This document shows, in pieces, positions 2,314-8,899 of a DNA stretch of 18,204 nucleotides. The DNA lies in IMG/VR virus record IMGVR_UViG_2547132272_000012, one strand, 5' to 3'. Under the pieces are notes generated by a model, which searched no databases, was not told the DNA's origin, and saw nothing but the letters and a program-made list of their open reading frames with translations. Each line of letters starts with the position of its first letter. The stretch's first letter is position 1. Source of the DNA: a virus. Taxonomy: Duplodnaviria > Heunggongvirae > Uroviricota > Caudoviricetes. A program made the translations under genes and the position numbers.

Positions 2314-3486
2314 TTATTTTTTTCCTGATCCGGTACCAAAATAATCCGGCGGCGTTTTATCACCGGATTTTTTGCTTTTGATTTCAGCCACCAGATTAAA
2401 CGTGAAGGTAAAGCCTGAAGAAGAGAGGGAAAACGCCAGTGACTCCACGAGCCAGCGGCGATCTTCCCGCTTACCAAATCCGGATGTCACCACGCCGGAT
2501 TCGGCGGTCATGGCAACATATGAAGGACGGCACGGCCCTGTCAGCGTCATTTTCCGGCTGTTGCGTTGCGCCTGTGTTTTTTTTGACTTTGCCTGTTGTT
2601 CAGCCGTTTCCTTTTCCGGCTGCGTGTACGGACTGGTTACAGACGAGCCGTCATGCTCCACGGTTGCTGTTTTGGTTCGCCCGTCAGCCTTGTCAAAATA
2701 ACGAACCGTGATTTTTTCTTTCTTCTTTTCTCCGGTAGAGCTCCCCCGTTCACCTTCCTGATAATTCCAGGATGACACCACGGAAGGTGTCAGCGTCACG
2801 GTCTTCAGGGGCGCGCCCGATACGGTGGTTCCGGCACCCTGCTCCAGAAACAACCAGTAACCTCCGGCAGGTTTACTGACGGCGTTATACGTCCGGGCAA
2901 GGCGGGACAACAGGCTGGCATCCGATTCTGCCACCTGATCCACATGGGTAATGCGGATCCCCGCCAGCTTCTCCGCCACCCGGGCCTTCAGTCCGTTTTC
3001 CGTGGCAACAGTTTTCACCAGATCACCCAGCGTGAGATTATCCCAGCTTCGTGTTTTCTGATTCAGCACGTCGCCGGACTGCTTTTCCGCATTCATGGGG
3101 GCAGCAGTAGCATAAATTTCGATCCGACGCGGCGGGCCGCTGCTGCTCACGCCGCACACCACAAACCAGCCCTTGTCCACCAGATTACCGTTAAACCCCA
3201 GCGCCACCCGCAGACGCGCCCCCTTTGTCGGCAGGGGCAGTCTTTCAGAAAGCAGCGTGATCTTCAGTTCATCAGACCTGGCGGTGGCTCCGCCGTAATC
3301 CGTCAGGGTGATATCCACAAGATAACGGGCCAGCACCCGCGTGATATCCCGCCCTTCAGCTGTCACCCGATACGCCGGGCAGAATTCCCGGACAGTCGTG
3401 GCGATGGTTTCCTGTTTTTTCTCATTTTTCAGGGACGCCTGATACGCGGCATTTATTGCCTGCAGCTGTTCTGATAATGACGTCAT
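2314..3486 (-). CDS. Tail protein D (P2 gpD / late control D family)
   Basis: ORF track 2314..3507 (397 aa). I prefer the second of two tandem ATGs (3486), 5 nt after a GGAGG Shine-Dalgarno, giving about 390 aa (P2 gpD is about 387 aa). Confidence 0.75.
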   Translation of the reverse strand: MTSLSEQLQAINAAYQASLKNEKKQETIATTVREFCPAYRVTAEGRDITRVLARYLVDITLTDYGGATARSDELKITLLSERLPLPTKGARLRVALGFNGNLVDKGWFVVCGVSSSGPPRRIEIYATAAPMNAEKQSGDVLNQKTRSWDNLTLGDLVKTVATENGLKARVAEKLAGIRITHVDQVAESDASLLSRLARTYNAVSKPAGGYWLFLEQGAGTTVSGAPLKTVTLTPSVVSSWNYQEGERGSSTGEKKKEKITVRYFDKADGRTKTATVEHDGSSVTSPYTQPEKETAEQQAKSKKTQAQRNSRKMTLTGPCRPSYVAMTAESGVVTSGFGKREDRRWLVESLAFSLSSSGFTFTFNLVAEIKSKKSGDKTPPDYFGTGSGKK

Positions 3487-3497
3487 CATCTCCTCCC

Positions 3498-3713
3498 TTA
3501 ATCCCACAGGCTGTATGGCGACTCAGACACCTGTTGTGTGATTTCAGGCAACGCAATGCGGATCCCCGCCGGATAAACCGCGCCTTTCTCTGCCAGCCCC
3601 TGATTGGCCTCCAGCACAAGAGTGAGCACGGCAGACAGATTTTCCGTGCCGTAATGCGTGGCGCAAATCGCATCAAGCACATCCCCGTCACGGGTTATCC
3701 AGATCGTCGGCAT
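3498..3713 (-). CDS. Tail protein X (P2 gpX-like)
   Basis: 71-aa product MPTIWITRDGDVLDAICATHYGTENLSAVLTLVLEANQGLAEKGAVYPAGIRIALPEI... resembles the small tail protein X family (GDTLDAIC ... ANPGLAE pattern). Confidence 0.75.
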   Translation of the reverse strand: MPTIWITRDGDVLDAICATHYGTENLSAVLTLVLEANQGLAEKGAVYPAGIRIALPEITQQVSESPYSLWD

Positions 3714-4167
3714 AATGTTTCAGCTCCAGACTCCACTTTTTGTTACGGTGCCCACCGCCAGGCAAAAAACGGTCGGTGGAATCAGAAAAACGCTCCACCA
3801 CCCACCATCCCAGCACATCACCTTCTCCGCTGACCAGCAGTTGCGGCTCAGCCTTATTCGCTAGGTCATACAGCGTGTTCACCGCCTCCGTCCCCGACTT
3901 CCCCAAAAAGGCGTGCGATTCCCCTTCAAGGCGAACGGTTCGCCCGTTCTTCCCGGTGTACTGCAGCAGACTCTGCTGACCGATGCGCGCCTGCTCGCTC
4001 CAGGTCCACCCCGCCTCACGGGTCAGCTGGTTATATGCCGTGGTATCCACGGAAAAGGCGAAATCCCCCAGCATCAGCATGACTCTGGCATCTGCAGCAC
4101 CACGGAGATAACTGTTGTCACGCTGAAGGCTGTCTTCAGCGAGAGCAATAACCGAACCCACACTCAC
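3688..4167 (-). CDS. Tail protein U (P2 gpU-like)
   Basis: Contains MLMLGDFAFSVDT...W.W..Q.RIGQ, resembling the gpU N-terminal signature. Start re-assigned to GTG at 4167 (GGAGGA 8 nt upstream; GTGA overlap with tape-measure stop) instead of track start 4188; the internal ATG at 4080 is an alternative. Confidence 0.7.
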   Translation of the reverse strand: MSVGSVIALAEDSLQRDNSYLRGAADARVMLMLGDFAFSVDTTAYNQLTREAGWTWSEQARIGQQSLLQYTGKNGRTVRLEGESHAFLGKSGTEAVNTLYDLANKAEPQLLVSGEGDVLGWWVVERFSDSTDRFLPGGGHRNKKWSLELKHYADDLDNP

Positions 4168-5822
4168 CAGACACTTCCTCCATCCCACAACGCATTATTA
4201 CCACTGAAGGCCGGGTTGTTTTTCGTCATACCGGCAATGGCGTCCGCAATACCCTGTTCGCTCTGTCCGGGCTGCGCAACAATGTTGAAGTTATAATTCT
4301 TCACGCTGTTGTCATTCAGCTGTGCGCCGGACTGTCCGCCCTCAACAGGAATGGCCTGCACGGCAGCCTGCCATGCTCCCGCACTGGCAAAAGGATCATC
4401 CTGTTTTCCGGCAGATCCTGCCTGCGCTGCCGGCAACGAAAAATCGAACGTTTTTTCCGGCGTGAGGTAACTGTTCACCGATTCATGAAACGCATCCGTA
4501 TCCACAATGCCCATAAAGCCCTTCGCGGCGTTATATTTTTCACGGACATTCTTTTCAAAATCCGGATTATTTTTCAGTTGCTCATCAAGCCAGGCATCCT
4601 GCCCGCTGTTCCGGGCCACTGTCCGGGCAGCGGTCATGTCACCACGCCCGACATACTCCAGAATCTGCTTCTGATCGCCCTGTTCATCCGGTAATAACCA
4701 GGCGAGTTTTTTGGCTACTGCAAAAATAATTTTTCCGACAAAAATGACGCCTTCGCCGAACTTCAGGGCCGCCGGATACAGCGTGTCCCTCAGAAAAGAC
4801 ACAACCTTTTTAATGCCTCCGCCTTTAAACCACTCTGCCAGGTCACCCGCTGTCTCTTGTATGGCGGGGGCCAGCTCTGCGCCCAGTTGTCCGGAAATTT
4901 CTGCAACCGCAGAAGAAAAAACCTGCTGCAAATCAGAAACAGCCTTGTTTCCGGCGAGTGCGCCAGCCACACCCTCTTTTGTCACCAGGTTATATTTATC
5001 CTGCTCAGCCAGCAGTTCCTGAAAACTTTTTCCAGAACGTTTGATCAGCATCAGCAGTTTACTGGCTTCACCACCAAACAATGCATCCAGCGCAAACGAT
5101 GCCTTTGATTCATCCTTCAGTGACAGCGCCCTGTCGATAATTTTTTCGAACTGTTCCTTATCACTCAGTCCGGCAAGATCGCCTTCCTCAAATCCCAGCG
5201 TTTCAAAGGCGTCAGAAAGCGAACTCTGCTTGCCATTTTGTTTATATTCCCCGGCCTTATGCAGGTATTCCTCAAACAGATCCCCGATATTATCGCCGGT
5301 CATATCGTACTGTTTTGCCAGGGCGTCCCAGTTCATGTACGTGCGGGTATCCACGCCATACGCAGTCGCTTTACCCGCTGTTTCAGCCGTCTGCGCATTC
5401 ATGGCAGCCGGAGCAATCAGCGCACCAAGTGCCGTGGTCACGGCACCGCCCCCCATCGCCAGACCGGCATTCCAGGCAAATTTACCGGTTCCGGCAAGCA
5501 GGCTTTTTCCCTTCCCCATAAAACGTCCGAGCCGATCGCGACGCTCAAGGCTCCGGTTCAGTTTTTTCTGGGCCGCATCCGCTTTCTTAATTTCAGCCGT
5601 GAGCCGGGCGTATTCATCCTCCATCGACTTAAAACGTTTCCCTGCCAGCGCCGCCCGTTTCATTTCTGCCGCCAGCTCTGCCTGCTCTTTACGCAAACGC
5701 GCAGCCTGCTGCTCCACATCCTGCAGATTTTTTCGCAGATCCGTCGCCGAACGACGCCACGAACTGTCCAGTTTGCCCCCGAACGACACGGTGGCCTTAA
5801 GATTCTGGCTTACGCTTCCCAC
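4164..5822 (-). CDS. Tail tape measure protein
   Basis: 552-aa ORF with a coiled-coil-like N-terminus (QDVEQQAARLRKEQAELAAEMKRAALAGKRF...) and Ala/Gly-rich low-complexity centre; GTG start at 5822 with GGAGG 9 nt upstream; lies between chaperone and U. Confidence 0.75.
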   Translation of the reverse strand: MGSVSQNLKATVSFGGKLDSSWRRSATDLRKNLQDVEQQAARLRKEQAELAAEMKRAALAGKRFKSMEDEYARLTAEIKKADAAQKKLNRSLERRDRLGRFMGKGKSLLAGTGKFAWNAGLAMGGGAVTTALGALIAPAAMNAQTAETAGKATAYGVDTRTYMNWDALAKQYDMTGDNIGDLFEEYLHKAGEYKQNGKQSSLSDAFETLGFEEGDLAGLSDKEQFEKIIDRALSLKDESKASFALDALFGGEASKLLMLIKRSGKSFQELLAEQDKYNLVTKEGVAGALAGNKAVSDLQQVFSSAVAEISGQLGAELAPAIQETAGDLAEWFKGGGIKKVVSFLRDTLYPAALKFGEGVIFVGKIIFAVAKKLAWLLPDEQGDQKQILEYVGRGDMTAARTVARNSGQDAWLDEQLKNNPDFEKNVREKYNAAKGFMGIVDTDAFHESVNSYLTPEKTFDFSLPAAQAGSAGKQDDPFASAGAWQAAVQAIPVEGGQSGAQLNDNSVKNYNFNIVAQPGQSEQGIADAIAGMTKNNPAFSGNNALWDGGSVW

Positions 5823-5924
5823 GTTTTACTGCCTCCACTTCATCCAGTAAAAATGCCGTAAACACACTGAACGGCATGGACAGATAATCGGAAAGAGGAA
5901 AATGCAGCCGCCGCCCGAGAAACC

Positions 5925-6224
5925 TTAACCCTCTGAAGATTTCGGTTTCGGTCGCTTCCCGGGTGGCAGCATAAAAACATTAAAGGCATCCGTCAGCTGG
6001 GCATAATCCGCTGCGGTCAGCAGCCAGATATCCTGCTCACTCAGATTACAAAGCTGCGCAATCATACGCGCCTCTTTTTCCTCCTCTGTTCCCCGGTCTT
6101 TGGTGAAGGCAATGCGATCGCGCACCAGCGGTTCGCGCATGGTGATACGTTCCAGCACAGCACCGCCCCCCAGAGTGACCGGCGTGTACAGTGTGATGGT
6201 GCGGGTTTCACCCGGAATATTCAT
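5925..6224 (-). CDS. Tail assembly chaperone (P2 gpE-like); probable frameshift-extended E+E' form
   Basis: 99-aa ORF immediately after the tube gene and its terminator; AAGGAG 6 nt upstream of ATG 6224; followed by an atypical 102-nt gap before the tape-measure gene that is open in alternative frames. Confidence 0.7.
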   Translation of the reverse strand: MNIPGETRTITLYTPVTLGGGAVLERITMREPLVRDRIAFTKDRGTEEEKEARMIAQLCNLSEQDIWLLTAADYAQLTDAFNVFMLPPGKRPKPKSSEG

Positions 6225-6236
6225 AATCTGCTCCTT

Positions 6237-6260
6237 AAAAAAAACGGCCCGCAGGCCGTT
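6237..6260 (-). terminator. Intrinsic terminator after tail tube gene
   Basis: On the minus strand: AACGGCC-TGCG-GGCCGTT stem-loop followed by T8, 17 nt after the tube stop and immediately before the chaperone RBS. Confidence 0.65.
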
Positions 6261-6276
6261 ATGCGTTAATCAGTGC

Positions 6277-6783
6277 TCAGAGACGCACTTTTGCCGACAG
6301 GCCGGCGAGAACATTCACGCCGTTGATCCGACGCTCAAAACGCTCGGTATCAATCATAATGAGTTCGATCCCCTCCAGCGTCTGACGGTAATAATTCACC
6401 GCGATTTCCACTGTCACCGCATTTTCTGACAGGCTGCTGTTTCCACGTGCATCCGGCGTCACCGTTTTCACAAAACCTTCGATTTCTTCGGTGGTCCCCA
6501 GCGCGGTGCCGTTTGCCAGATAGCCCTGATAGGCCGTGAAGCGGGAGCGGTTGCCACTGACAAATCCGAGACTGGACAGCATGTCTGTATCCAGACCATA
6601 GAATTTAATCTGGCAGGTCAGCGCCTCCATGCCGTCGTCAACCGGCGTGGGGGCATCCTGTGCCCCGGTGCGTAAATCAGTGGTGGTTATGGACAGCGTG
6701 GGGGGCGTGAACTCATGCGCTCCCTGAATACGGATCCCCTGGCGGAAAAAAGTCCAGGCCCGTAATGTGTTTTTACTGCTCAT
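6277..6783 (-). CDS. Tail tube protein (P2 gpFII-like)
   Basis: 168-aa ORF, ATGA overlap with sheath stop; size and position typical of contractile tail tube; C-terminal ...IDTERFERRINGVNVL... resembles the FII family. Confidence 0.8.
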   Translation of the reverse strand: MSSKNTLRAWTFFRQGIRIQGAHEFTPPTLSITTTDLRTGAQDAPTPVDDGMEALTCQIKFYGLDTDMLSSLGFVSGNRSRFTAYQGYLANGTALGTTEEIEGFVKTVTPDARGNSSLSENAVTVEIAVNYYRQTLEGIELIMIDTERFERRINGVNVLAGLSAKVRL

Positions 6784-8240
6784 GTTGCCGTCATCTCCTT
6801 AATGCCGTATTCGTTGTTGACGCTCACCCGCATGCTGATAAGTTCAGTCGGCGATTTGGGACCGAAGTCATAGTTGATGTACAGTTCACCGGCTGCCAGC
6901 GTTTCGGCGGTATTCAGTTCCGGATCCAGCCATGCCCGCCCCCCGAAGATGGCACCTTCTGCCACCAGACGGCGCATATACGCATTAATGGTGCCAATAA
7001 TGTCGTCCGCATTCTGGCGATCGAGCGGGCGGTCAACATACGCCAGCATCGCCTCCTGGATACTGTCTTCAATCACATCCGCAGTACGGCGGACGGACTC
7101 GAAATGCCACTGAGGATGGGACGAGCACAGCCGGTTTCCCCAGTGTTTAAATCCGGCGCGGCGGATCAGGGTGGAGACATTCTGCATATTAAGCAGGTTG
7201 GCATCGCAGTTACGCTCACCGAGGATAAATTCATCCACCTGCTCAACACCGAGGATGTTGTAAACCTCCTGGTTTGATTTGCTCCACCACCACCCTTTTT
7301 CATAGTCAATACGGGCACGCAGTCCGGCAGCAAAGGCCGAATACGGGCGATACACCAGTTGCCCCTCTGCATTACTGACCTGCACACGCGGGCGCAGTAA
7401 TTCAGTCCTGGCACCGTAAGACTGGCGACGCTGCACCACATCCTGCAGTGTCGCGCCCGCAGCACAATCCACGTACGCCACTGCACGCAGTTTTCCGGCC
7501 ACCGTTTCCAGTGCCTTACCCACCGCATCGTCTTCACTGAATCCTGGTGCAATCACAATACGTGGCTGATACGTGGTGACGGATTTTGCCGATGACAGCA
7601 TGCTGATCCCCGCAAGAATGGCAGCACGCTGCTCTTCCGGCTTCGTTTTTTCTTCCACCCGGACGATCACCGACAGCGCGTTACGCTGGTCGTTAATCTC
7701 CGTCAGCGCCTGCTTCAGTGTTCCGGTGATCCCCAGACGTGAAAGCGCCGTTGTTCCCGCCATCGCCACTGGCGTGTTCAGCGGAAACGGTTCATCTTCA
7801 CCGCCACTCAGTGTGCCGGAAAACGGCGACACAATACCGTCACCGCTGCCGGTGGCACTCACCCCGGCCCCCGCCACACCATTCACCGCCGTCACAACAT
7901 CACTGACGGTGGCATTGCCTGCCCCCTCTTCACTGCATCCAAGCCAAATCAACAGGCTTCCGTTTTCCCATTTTGCTGACGTGGGAACCGCACCCGCACT
8001 TTTTTCTTTGACAGCCTGTTCAGCAATAACGGTAATGGTATTTCCGCTCCGTCCCCCCGCTTTTGCCGTAAAGGTCAGCTCGTTATCCAGCAGCGGCGTT
8101 CCCGCTGTCAGTGTCGCTGCCACAGCTCCGGCAGCCTGCGGCGCGGTTCCCACCACACCAATAATGGCTGTCTCTATTGTGGTTACTGCCACCGTGCCTG
8201 CTGTCAGCTCGATGGTTTCCACACCATGTAATTGCCCCAT
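6780..8240 (-). CDS. Tail sheath protein (P2 gpFI-like)
   Basis: Contains LIRRAGFKHWGNRLCS and AGELYINYDFGPKSP, closely resembling conserved sheath motifs. Start re-assigned to ATG 8240 (MGQLHGVETIEL...; GGAGA 6 nt upstream) rather than track start 8282. Confidence 0.85.
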   Translation of the reverse strand: MGQLHGVETIELTAGTVAVTTIETAIIGVVGTAPQAAGAVAATLTAGTPLLDNELTFTAKAGGRSGNTITVIAEQAVKEKSAGAVPTSAKWENGSLLIWLGCSEEGAGNATVSDVVTAVNGVAGAGVSATGSGDGIVSPFSGTLSGGEDEPFPLNTPVAMAGTTALSRLGITGTLKQALTEINDQRNALSVIVRVEEKTKPEEQRAAILAGISMLSSAKSVTTYQPRIVIAPGFSEDDAVGKALETVAGKLRAVAYVDCAAGATLQDVVQRRQSYGARTELLRPRVQVSNAEGQLVYRPYSAFAAGLRARIDYEKGWWWSKSNQEVYNILGVEQVDEFILGERNCDANLLNMQNVSTLIRRAGFKHWGNRLCSSHPQWHFESVRRTADVIEDSIQEAMLAYVDRPLDRQNADDIIGTINAYMRRLVAEGAIFGGRAWLDPELNTAETLAAGELYINYDFGPKSPTELISMRVSVNNEYGIKEMTAT

Positions 8241-8257
8241 TTGCATTCTCCGGACAT

Positions 8258-8278
8258 AAAAAAACCTGCCGCAGCAGG
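8258..8278 (-). terminator. Terminator-like hairpin plus T-run between spike V and sheath genes
   Basis: Minus strand CCTGC-TGCG-GCAGG followed by T7, beginning 1 nt after the V stop; short stem, so possibly an attenuator or stability element rather than an efficient terminator. Confidence 0.4.
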
Positions 8279-8899
8279 TCACATTTTCTGATTCGGTACT
8301 TTCGTGGTTCCCCCACTGTCTCCGGGATGGTCGTGTCCATTAAACGTTTCCCGGATCCGGCTCATGCTGCCGGATTTATCCGTCACCTCGCCTTTTGCAT
8401 AAAAATCACTTTTCACCACCACTTCACCTTCAACCATCGTGCGTCCGTTCACGATCAGGTCTTCTGAGATCATGACGTTTCCGTCCAGCACACCATTCCC
8501 GGTAATGGCATAGGTGCCCCCTTCCGCCAGAATAATGGTCAGTGAGTGCGTCTCCCGGTTATAGCAAATTTCCGTGCCATCTCCGTAACGGGTGATGTGC
8601 TCACTGTCGCTGCCCTGCGGAGCCGGTGCCTCACCGGTATTCCAGCCGGGAAAAACACGACCGTTATTCAGCTCCCCGGCCTCTGACAGTACCGTGACCG
8701 CATCGCCCACAGCAAACGGCTCAAAATCTGCCCGGTTTTTCCCGGCAAAACCCTGACACAATGGCAGCCAGGTGGTCACAATATCCCCCAGATCCACGCG
8801 GCATTCCGGAAAACCACCGTCCAGCCGCACCGAGTGGATCACCCCACGCCGGACCATATTTGCCAGGCGACGCTGTAAATCCCCCAGAACCTCATTCAC
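8279..8899 (-). CDS. Baseplate spike/assembly protein V (P2 gpV / Mu gp45-like)
   Basis: C-terminal motif GHDHPGDSGGTT is the gpV spike signature. Start re-assigned to GTG 8899 (GAGGGA 7 nt upstream; N-terminus then MNEVLGDLQRRLANMVRRG...). Confidence 0.8.
   Translation of the reverse strand: MNEVLGDLQRRLANMVRRGVIHSVRLDGGFPECRVDLGDIVTTWLPLCQGFAGKNRADFEPFAVGDAVTVLSEAGELNNGRVFPGWNTGEAPAPQGSDSEHITRYGDGTEICYNRETHSLTIILAEGGTYAITGNGVLDGNVMISEDLIVNGRTMVEGEVVVKSDFYAKGEVTDKSGSMSRIRETFNGHDHPGDSGGTTKVPNQKM

Follow-up and report, generated by a model that had tools for sequence, protein, structure and literature searches.

Organization of the tail module

The window analysed here, an 18,204-nucleotide stretch of viral DNA (Caudoviricetes; IMG/VR record IMGVR_UViG_2547132272_000012), carries a tail module with the P2-like order sheath, tube, chaperone (PF10109), tape measure, gpU, tail X, and gpD (Table 1). 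The same gene order is annotated in relatives. The chaperone gene thus sits between the tube and tape-measure genes, as frameshifting tail chaperones do. Its zero-frame product, the short form, matched the Pfam family PF10109 (Phage_TAC_7, which comprises E, gp41, and gp14 chaperones) with 50.6 bits (E = 2e-13) over residues 9-85, which covers profile positions 1-78 of 79 and exceeds the gathering threshold of 25 bits. The product also falls into PHROG 166 (tail protein), and a 99%-identical gene bears the PGAP label "phage tail assembly protein". The candidate tape-measure gene was recognized by a match to PHROG 3654 over its full length, by weaker matches to the tape-measure PHROGs 9483 and 8125, and by its position between the chaperone gene and the genes for gpU (PF06995), tail X, and gpD. 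A GGAGG at 5836-5832 lies 9 nt upstream of its GTG. In annotation, this neighbouring gene is wrongly labelled "AAA family ATPase".

A gap of 102 nt (5924..5823) separates the chaperone stop at 5925 from the tape-measure start at 5822, in agreement with the coordinates given in a preliminary description of this DNA. That description regarded the operon as otherwise overlapping, but a further gap of 52 nt, with a terminator-like hairpin, lies between the tube and chaperone genes. An Rfam scan of 5600-6400 returned nothing meaningful; one sub-threshold TarB match lay over the terminator hairpin.

Table 1. Features of the chaperone locus and of the proposed frameshift
Feature	Coordinates	Strand	Remarks
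Tail tube gene, P2 FII-like	6277..6783	-	PF04985 Phage_tube, E 7.8e-20; upstream of chaperone
Short chaperone form, zero frame	5925..6224	-	99 aa, 11.1 kDa; TAA at 5927-5925
Predicted long form	complement(join(5797..5973,5973..6224))	-	142 aa, 16.2 kDa
-1 frame stop TAA	5980..5982	-	directly 5' of slip site; upstream limit of shift window
Proposed -1 slip tetramer U_UUU	5973..5976	-	third base of Val GUU (5976) and Phe UUU (5975-5973)
-1 part of long form	5797..5973	-	encodes YAATREATETEIFRGLRFLGRRLHFPLSDYLSMPFSVFTAFLLDEVEAVKRGKRKPES; base 5973 read twice
Dual-coding stretch	5928..5972	-	zero frame MLPPGKRPKPKSSEG (short-form tail); -1 frame YAATREATETEIFRG
Candidate stimulatory GC-rich hairpin	5907..5970	-	putative; begins 2 nt 3' of slip tetramer
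+1 frame ORF	5840..5989	-	49 codons, TGA at 5842-5840; judged non-coding
Tape measure protein gene	4164..5822	-	552 aa, GTG at 5822; position and PHROG 3654

Coding capacity of the alternative frames

As had been described, the -1 frame is open from 5979 and extends about 9 codons into the tape-measure gene, ending at TAA 5799-5797, which lies 26 nt (8-9 codons) inside that gene. The 49-codon +1 ORF ascribed to the region, which ends just before the tape-measure RBS, is also present in the window; the CCC GGG placed at about 5955-5960 is found at 5963-5958. These frames were compared among ~60-75 distinct relatives from at least 11 enterobacterial genera. Most relatives have the same -1 stop (TT TAA Y) upstream of the slip site. 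The -1 codon between that stop and the slip site is Cys or Arg among relatives, and a codon that varies in this way is taken to be without protein constraint.

Downstream, the -1 frame was uninterrupted in 60/60 distinct relatives across 177 nt. The ratio of synonymous to non-synonymous differences was 341:477 in the -1 frame, 84:866 in the zero frame past its stop, and 27:919 in the +1 frame, and the codon-position entropy of the gap-only part of the -1 frame was 0.56/0.25/0.87 for positions 1/2/3. The conserved -1 peptide, ..RFLGRRLHFP.SDYL.MPFS.F..L.DE.EA..RG.., was kept from E. coli to Rosenbergiella, Tatumella, and Erwinia, over a range in which chaperone identity goes down to 64%. In the dual-coding stretch, variation gathers at zero-frame third positions and the zero-frame motif MLPP.KRPK is invariant among relatives. 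The -1 frame as a whole includes the peptides EATETEIFR and LHFPLSDYLSMPFSVFTAFLLDEVEAVK. On this comparative evidence the open -1 frame is more than a matter of chance, and the pattern of substitution shows it to be protein-coding and under purifying selection.

Tail chaperone genes with other shifts include that of phage Mu (-2) and that of HSTV-2 (+1). The preliminary description had suggested a +1 slip on the proline codon CCC. Such a shift at CCC_G (5963-5960), or a -2 shift as in Mu, would lead into the +1 ORF 5989..5840, which is open in this window up to the tape-measure RBS; CCC is found in 70/75 relatives, and certain tail chaperone genes do shift by +1 or -2 (PMC5009743). Among the relatives, however, the +1 frame was interrupted before the tape-measure start region in 55/60, with stops scattered 28-127 nt past the zero-frame stop. 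The peptide it encodes (VSRAAAAFSSFR is an example) is not conserved, and the codon after CCC is GGG in only 18/75. The +1 frame was rejected because its stops are variable and because it is not under purifying selection in ~75 relatives, and the conservation of CCC is attributed to dual coding, as Pro in the zero frame and Ala/Thr-Arg in the -1 frame. A shift at CCC is therefore scarcely credible. The extension is conserved in the -1 frame only, and as far as a comparison of relatives can settle the direction of the shift, that direction is -1. The same comparison strongly supports the earlier proposal that the chaperone is frameshifted to a long form, while placing the shift at a U_UUU tetramer and in the -1 direction instead of at CCC and in the +1 direction.

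No ATG, GTG, or TTG is present in the -1 frame of the window between 5979 and 5877, and the conserved -1 peptide begins well upstream of 5877. Judged from the sequence, the -1 frame lacks an initiation codon of its own, and 5979-5925 is the only interval in which ribosomes could enter it. The alternative would be a separate small gene with its own start, like the "GpE family phage tail protein" beside P2-like E. NCBI annotates P2 E' relatives as stand-alone proteins of 35-52 aa, a 39-aa ORF is annotated at this position in Hafnia phage yong2, and a -1 frame ATG happens to occur in some relatives (MRAIRFLG.. in P0065) and, at 5877-5875, in the window. Against this, conservation of the peptide is highest in RFLGRRLHFP.SDYL, a segment that precedes that Met, falls in the startless interval, and evolves under purifying selection; three relatives (L016, L017, and L019) have Leu in place of the Met, and database fragments of the -1 ORF start at differing places. 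Moreover, E+E' of P2 is itself annotated in its GenBank record as a -1 frameshift fusion, and a measurement of the efficiency of that shift is cited in PMC5009743. A separate gene is considered improbable.

Database searches with the extension

An exhaustive HMMER search over 1.84 billion representative proteins recovered only 8 fragmentary calls of the -1 ORF, from which we conclude that the ORF is not an ordinary independently called gene. Two of these 8 fragments were chimeric and look like assembly indels. A word-indexed protein search with the extension gave no candidates, and the extension had no match in Pfam, NCBIfam, or PHROG models. Even with the cutoff relaxed to E <= 10, the family PF06528 (Phage_P2_GpE) matched neither the window extension nor one of the 16 family members searched; P2 E+E', used as the positive control, scored 76 bits. 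In hhalign comparisons, the extension showed no significant similarity to P2 E' and an 18-member PF06528 alignment (P = 0.045, probability ~1%) and none to the WO extension. Weak profile similarity was found to the candidate -1 extension of vB_EcoM-569R10 (unannotated, and deduced in the present analysis; P = 6e-4) and to the extension that is annotated as a frameshift product in phage Mica (P = 6e-3). The -1 frame is thus, if narrowly, not without homologues among chaperone extensions: its peptide is conserved across the family and weakly resembles these two, with PF06528 unmatched. In all close relatives examined, the long form was left unannotated by PGAP and most phage submitters.

These blanks would suit a locus without recoding, in which the gap is an untranslated spacer kept by an RNA or regulatory constraint such as the tape-measure RBS or mRNA structure. 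The gap itself goes unannotated by PGAP and most phage annotators, the extension is missing from the three model collections, and the window allows a stable hairpin to be drawn (see below). A mere spacer is nevertheless very unlikely, since the three-base periodicity and the synonymous excess are specific to the -1 frame, no -1 stop interrupts the 177 nt in any of the 60 relatives, and covariation for RNA structure was not found.

The proposed slip site

Within the entry interval 5979-5925, inspection of the aligned sequences showed U_UUU to be the sole conserved motif. An in-frame X_XXY_YYZ heptamer is absent from the zero-frame shift region of the window. The preliminary description had reported that no canonical heptamer is in frame, and our search of the shift window was likewise empty; an in-frame Z_ZZN tetramer, U_UUU at 5976-5973, had however been overlooked. 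Nor is a heptamer common to the relatives, only two of 48 distinct shift windows having one, at other positions. By contrast, U_UUU was the only Z_ZZN motif found in 48/48. A C_CCG tetramer at Leu-Pro codons, present in 34/48 relatives, was dismissed as a common site because it is absent from the window, which has CTG CCA, and because the motif is weak.

The slip tetramer lies in an invariant block, G-UUUUU-AUG (5978-5970). Among distinct relatives, GTT was found in 75/75 and TTT in 75/75 at the slip site, beside synonymous sites that vary (preceding Phe codon, TTT 54 and TTC 21; Asn, AAT 36 and AAC 39). The relatives had partly been gathered by a peptide pattern containing AFNVFM, so that amino acid conservation at the site is partly ascertainment; codon choice is unaffected by this.

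The minimal -1 motif is a Z_ZZN tetramer (PMC4066793; PMC5009743), and frameshifting tail chaperones include non-heptamer sites as well as other shift directions (PMC5009743; PMC10885494). In E. coli, U_UUU is one of the three tetramers most prone to shifting (PMC4066793), belonging to the top three both in efficiency and in use (PMC4066793; PMC5009743), and is employed by IS elements (PMC4066793; PMC5009743). Shifting at the six best tetramers reached 0.26-5.6% when a pseudoknot lay downstream, whereas tetramers alone, without a stimulator, are hardly shifty (PMC4066793). In the sequence U_GUU_UUU, the P-site tRNA-Val is left without a re-pairing option (GUU to UGU). Tetramer sites of IS elements (CGA_AAG in IS1222; U_UUY in the IS1 and IS3 families) resemble the present one in relying on re-pairing of a single tRNA with no re-pairing in the P site, but there the shift joins transposase ORFs, and a hairpin or pseudoknot downstream has usually been demonstrated, whereas the hairpin here is a candidate.

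Useful transcriptional slippage in bacteria usually needs runs of 7-9 or more A/T. The invariant element here is a homopolymeric run (5977-5973), on which slippage of RNA polymerase, giving a U6 transcript from T5, might take the place of a ribosomal event; it would yield the same long protein and is known in some IS elements and secretion-system genes (PMC5009743). Five T are, however, shorter than the runs known to slip usefully in bacteria. In relatives, homologous sites have an interrupted run, namely the classical ribosomal heptamers A_AAU_UUU and G_GGU_UUU and the tetramer GU[A_AAG], and what is conserved is how the run is set against the zero-frame codons (U_UUU), as tRNA re-pairing predicts. 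Polymerase slippage is accordingly held to be quite unlikely.

Possible stimulators

The core of the candidate hairpin, CC.CCCGGG / CUCGGG.GG, begins 6 nt downstream of the tetramer. Its minimum free energy in the window was -33.8 kcal/mol (z = -3.2), and 2/200 shuffled sequences folded as well. A similar closing stem appeared in the minimum free energy structure of ~10/13 relatives, but single-sequence z-scores were significant in the window and in the only Rosenbergiella locus folded (L020) and not in the other relatives. Covariation did not support the long hairpin, which had been drawn by hand, with 71.7% of cells paired versus 71.9% in shuffles and 1 compensatory cell. RNAalifold likewise gave no consensus structure at the hairpin, only a weak one that includes the slip site (-1.4 kcal/mol). 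Sequence conservation of the hairpin is uninformative because both arms lie in coding sequence. An upstream SD-like element was absent in 43/46 distinct sequences. The GC-rich hairpin (5970..5907) may stimulate the shift.

Relation to known frameshifting chaperones

The closest parallels are found in P2, whose gpE and gpE+E' are encoded in the FETUD tail operon. They have the same N-terminal PF10109 domain, and the P2 genes follow in the same order, FII (tube), E, T (tape measure), U, and D. The P2 shift is also -1 and takes place just where the PF10109 domain ends, on the Phe UUU codon homologous to the one here (alignment column 100), and its extension, like the present one, is ~58 aa long and ends a few codons inside the tape-measure gene. 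The two systems differ in that P2 has the canonical heptamer U_UUU_UUG and the present locus only U_UUU after GU, and in that the short form continues past the slip site for 15 codons here versus 6 in P2. Beyond the unmatched PF06528 profile, the extension resembles P2 E' weakly in a motif, hF-H-[WF]-P-x-S-[ED]..M, at the P of 0.045 given above.

In the alignment, P2, Mica, Mano, and WO all shift at the codon that falls in this Phe UUU column. The aligned shift sites are U_UUU_UUG in P2 (annotated), A_AAU_UUU in Mica and G_GGU_UUU in Mano (annotated joins), and U_UUU_UUU in WO. The "tape measure chaperone" proteins of Burkholderia phage Mica and Achromobacter phage Mano belong to PF10109, are 30-40% identical to the chaperone here, and are encoded between the tube and tape-measure genes; in both, a -1 join is annotated. 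Their UUU slip codon occupies the same alignment column as here, and the Mica junction is F-Y, also as here. Unlike the present site, both are canonical heptamers, their zero frame terminates 2 codons past the slip site, and their extensions are shorter (45-51 aa).

The chaperone gene of lambda, encoding gpG and gpGT, likewise lies between the major tail and tape-measure genes. Lambda is a siphovirus, however, its chaperone proteins belong to an unrelated sequence family, and it uses the heptamer G_GGA_AAG where the present locus has none. Lambda requires no more than about 1 GT per 30 G; this ratio is important for tail assembly, and virions contain neither product (PMC5009743).

Proposed mechanism and implications

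A programmed -1 ribosomal frameshift at U_UUU, giving a short chaperone of 99 aa and a long one of 142 aa by analogy with G/GT of lambda and E/E+E' of P2, is the reading we regard as highly probable. A minority of ribosomes would slip back by one base, the tRNA-Phe on UUU 5975-5973 re-pairing with UUU 5976-5974 (GU[U_UUU]AUG). The slipped ribosomes would then read UAU GCU GCC ... and continue in the -1 frame across the 102-nt gap as far as TAA 5799-5797. Residues 1-84 would be common to both forms, the short one ending in ..NVF-MLPPGKRPKPKSSEG and the long one in ..NVF-YAATRE...RFLGRRLHFPLSDYLSMPFSVF...KPES, with ..LTDAFNVFYAATR as the predicted junction peptide of the latter. We infer the ribosomal nature of the slip, its efficiency, and the role of the hairpin.

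The function of the two forms may be sketched by analogy with lambda and P2. The common PF10109 domain would coat the tape measure protein and the extension would recruit tube subunits; the frequency of the slip would fix the ratio of short to long form, and neither form would stay in the virion.

We further think it fairly likely that a lineage of enterobacterial prophages, which combines a lambda-like head with a P2-like tail, has exchanged the canonical heptamer of the family for a minimal U_UUU, perhaps depending on a long-range GC-rich hairpin within dual-coding sequence, and that in this lineage PF10109 is fused to an extension family absent from Pfam, NCBIfam, and PHROGs.

The shift proposed here is of the ordinary, known chaperone type, and our understanding of tail assembly is unchanged by it; this -1 case has been missed by genome annotators. 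Adding join complement(5797..5973,5973..6224) would correct the annotation of the tail module in this prophage group, and would bring in an extension family found in none of the searched domain libraries. The locus also provides a clean comparative case, in which synonymous sites are invariant in 75/75 relatives beside freely varying neighbours. A bare U_UUU seems to be enough if the demand for the long form is no more than a few percent, and heptamer-based frameshift predictors would gain from such cases. If this reading is true, the prophages provide a case from nature in which evolution has fixed tetramer-type -1 frameshifting in a phage, and they reveal a systematic gap in current annotation pipelines.

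Tail Module of the Window

All genes in the chaperone region of the window lie on the minus strand, and together the tail genes form a P2 FI-FII-E-T-U-D tail module. The PF10109 match of the chaperone (50.6 bits, residues 9-85) carries the model text "tail assembly chaperone proteins E, 41 or 14." A Pfam search with the 552-aa protein gave no match, and beyond PHROG 3654 it has weaker matches to tape-measure PHROGs; these matches and the order of the genes point to a tape measure protein. The public name, "AAA family ATPase" or "hypothetical protein" by PGAP in near-identical Escherichia coli prophages (related locus L001, 3529-5187), therefore looks wrong. The E. coli prophage at 99% identity has the same PGAP annotation of the module, from which the frameshift is absent.

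Features of the tail module and of the predicted frameshift
Feature	Coordinates	Strand	Matches or details
Tail sheath	6780..8282	-	PF04984, PF17482
Tail tube, P2 FII-type	6277..6783	-	PF04985
Terminator-like hairpin	6237-6260	-	AACGGCC-TGCG-GGCCGTT, then T8
Chaperone, 99 aa	5925..6224	-	PF10109 Phage_TAC_7, PHROG 166; stop TAA 5927-5925
Long form (predicted), 142 aa	complement(join(5797..5973,5973..6224))	-
Candidate slip site U_UUU	5976-5973	-
Candidate stimulatory hairpin	5970..5907	-
Tape-measure candidate, 552 aa	4164..5822	-	PHROG 3654, full length; GTG start 5822, GGAGG 5836-5832
gpU	3688..4188	-	PF06995
Tail protein X	3498..3713	-	PF05489
gpD	2314..3507	-	PF05954

The preliminary description was accurate in its gap, stop, and start positions and in finding both alternative frames open across the untranslated 102 nt between chaperone and tape measure (5924..5823). 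The +1 frame holds a 49-codon ORF at 5989..5840; the −1 frame is bounded by TAA stops at 5982-5980 and 5799-5797, being open from 5979 on, and thus reaches 26 nt into the 552-aa gene. The CCC GGG that had been placed at about 5955-5960 is at 5963-5958, and the operon does not overlap everywhere else, as had been supposed, since the tube-chaperone junction is also a gap, of 52 nt. Downstream of the tube stop (6277), an intrinsic-terminator-like hairpin directly precedes the chaperone RBS (RBS/ATG, 6224); it is kept across the family, with both arms co-changed in Providencia (GCGACC..GGTCGC) and Erwinia (GCAGCC..GGCTGC). A possible role is attenuation of transcription, or stabilization of the sheath/tube mRNA, so that less chaperone and tape measure than sheath and tube is made.

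Coding Potential of the Alternative Frames

Related loci were taken from E. coli genomes (DNA identity 99 and 80%), Citrobacter phage Chris1 and Hafnia phage yong2, GTDB genomes (17 loci; Providencia, Citrobacter, Scandinavium, Pantoea, Enterobacter, Izhakiella, Erwinia, Tatumella, and Rosenbergiella), and IMG/VR (80 loci), the lowest chaperone identity being 64%. Two peptide patterns, one of which included AFNVFM, served to collect loci, and amino acid conservation at the slip site is therefore partly ascertainment; codon choice is unaffected because, as DNA, these patterns are degenerate.

In every relative, the −1 frame runs on beyond the zero-frame stop and ends 83-140 nt later, at the tape-measure start or just inside it, encoding the conserved peptide FYA.AR.A.E....IRFLGRRLHFP.SDYLDMPFS.FSDFL.DE.EA..RG.... 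Ends of the +1 frame are scattered over 28-127 nt beyond the same stop, and the peptide it encodes lacks conservation. Of 60 distinct gap-free sequences, none carries a −1 frame stop from the slip region to the tape-measure start region, and 55 carry a +1 frame stop there. Synonymous to non-synonymous codon differences, counted against a window-like sequence as reference, came to 341:477 for the −1 frame, against 84:866 for the zero frame (beyond its stop) and 27:919 for the +1 frame. Where no other frame is translated, entropy at −1 codon positions 1, 2, and 3 was 0.56, 0.25, and 0.87. By these comparisons, it is the −1 frame that codes for protein; the +1 frame does not. The frameshift proposed in the preliminary description thus stands as a phenomenon, in the form of a conserved −1 extension that stop codons in relatives do not refute, but not in its alternative direction: a +1 (or −2) shift on the proline codon CCC is rejected, given the variable and frequent +1 stops, the 27:919 ratio, and the unconserved peptide.

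In the window, the first ATG, GTG, or TTG met in the −1 frame on reading from 5979 is an ATG at 5877. This Met is Leu in three relatives (L016, L017, and L019) and comes after the most strongly conserved stretch of the peptide, RFLGRRLHFP.SDYL. Entry must therefore be from the frame of the chaperone gene, and the predicted shift must fall between 5979 and 5925. In yong2 (L004, 3433-3552), a 39-aa "hypothetical protein" between the chaperone and tape measure genes lies within the −1 extension region and, by its coordinates, appears to be the 3′ part of the extension called as a separate gene.

A Probable Tetramer Slip Site

The zero frame of the possible shift window holds no X_XXY_YYZ heptamer, in agreement with the preliminary description, which had overlooked the tetramer U_UUU. 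Ribosomes on the chaperone mRNA would slip −1 at this tetramer to give the 142-aa long form. It comprises the third base of GUU and a UUU codon and is the sole Z_ZZN tetramer common to all 48 distinct shift windows. Within 5979-5925, the block G-TTTTT-ATG (5978-5970) shows no variation: 75/75 distinct sequences have GTT for Val and TTT for Phe. The Phe two codons upstream uses TTT in 54 and TTC in 21, and other third positions nearby vary freely. GTT TTT is directly preceded in most relatives by a stop in the −1 frame (TT TAA Y). Because the Asn codon varies (AAT in 36 sequences, AAC in 39), the intervening −1 codon is Cys or Arg and is therefore not under protein constraint. U_UUU is probably the shift site. 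A second tetramer, C_CCG, absent from the window, occurs in 34/48 distinct shift windows as CU[C_CCG] (Leu-Pro codons), 9 nt downstream of U_UUU (L003, L007-L011, and others; columns 21-24 of alignment A2); a weak −1 motif in E. coli, it could be a second, minor entry to the −1 frame.

The minimal −1 motif is Z_ZZN, with a hierarchy in E. coli of A_AAG >> U_UUC > U_UUU; the six best tetramers give 0.26-5.6% with a pseudoknot and are barely active without a stimulator, and the three best predominate at tetramer sites of IS1/IS3 elements (PMC4066793; PMC5009743). In phage lambda, ∼1 GT is produced for every 30 G, and the proportion in P2 is two- to three-fold higher (PMC5009743), so a site of low efficiency fits the need that is expected.

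In the window, a GC-rich hairpin that may stimulate the shift folds 3′ of the slip site at −33.8 kcal/mol (z −3.2; 2/200 shuffles fold as well). About 10 of 13 relatives have a like closing stem (CCGCCC with GGGCGG) in their MFE structure; z-scores in relatives range from −2.2 to +2.0. RNAalifold found no consensus structure in this region, and among 61 sequences the proposed hairpin showed no excess pairing (71.7% paired cells versus 71.9% in shuffles) and one compensatory cell. Both arms are coding (zero-frame Pro-Pro, −1 frame Gly-Arg-Arg), so conservation alone says nothing about RNA structure. An upstream SD-like element is absent in 43/46 distinct sequences.

Predicted Products and Extension Family

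The short form (11.1 kDa) ends NVF-MLPPGKRPKPKSSEG and the predicted long form (16.2 kDa) NVF-YAATREATETEIFRGLRFLGRRLHFPLSDYLSMPFSVFTAFLLDEVEAVKRGKRKPES. That the −1 product is made is considered likely. The Pro/Lys-rich zero-frame tail of the short form, MLPP.KRPK, is conserved, and 5972..5928 is therefore dual-coding; the tail may have its own function or reflect the overlapping −1 frame and possible RNA structure alone.

The extension matched no family in Pfam, NCBIfam, or PHROGs, including PF06528, which covers P2 E′ and for which the positive control scored. Profile comparisons brought a shared motif, [FW]-P-x-S-[DE]-x-[LM]-x-M-x(4)-F, into register, with weak statistics (hhalign P of 6e-4 with the candidate extension of phage vB_EcoM-569R10, inferred here and unannotated; 6e-3 with that of Burkholderia phage Mica; 0.045 with the P2 E′ family; 0.21 with that of Wolbachia phage WO). 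Among 1.84 billion representative proteins, the −1 ORF has only 8 fragmentary calls, and a word-indexed protein search with the extension found none. Two database proteins (P0066 and P0069) join the zero-frame chaperone C terminus straight to the −1 extension in one ORF, the P0069 junction reading ..DAFNVFMLPPAK-TKAALRAIRFLGRRLHF..; assembly indels or naturally occurring frameshift mutations seem more likely here than designed fusions.

Comparison with Known Chaperone Frameshifts

The closest organization is that of P2 E/E+E′, an annotated −1 shift at GG[U_UUU_UUG]. Zero-frame slip sites are GC[A_AAU_UUU] in Mica and CU[G_GGU_UUU] in Achromobacter phage Mano (both annotated joins) and GA[U_UUU_UUU] in WO (annotated as separate gpG and gpGT ORFs). 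The slip-site UUU Phe of the window and these four phages shares one protein alignment column (A6, column 100) at the very end of the PF10109 domain, and the window site is therefore a minimal version of that of the family. Unlike the heptamers, it keeps A-site-type re-pairing (UUU to UUU) alone, since its 5′ codon GUU cannot re-pair (this would be UGU). Past the slip site, the short form continues for 15 codons, versus 2-6 in P2, Mica, and Mano. The vB_EcoM-569R10 chaperone (L105, about 786-1200), 44% identical to that of the window, also has an unannotated −1 extension, with a candidate slip site GU[A_AAG] two codons downstream of the window's position; tetramer-type sites may be recurrent in this branch of PF10109.

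On this comparative sequence evidence, the frameshift appears real, conserved, and programmed, a −1 shift of the classical tail-assembly-chaperone kind. By analogy, its mechanism would be ribosomal, possibly hairpin-stimulated, and its function would be to provide the tape measure and tube with two chaperone forms in a controlled ratio. Chaperone frameshifts of this kind are already known; what is new is an unannotated case with an uncatalogued extension sequence family and a minimal slip site that is mildly unusual.
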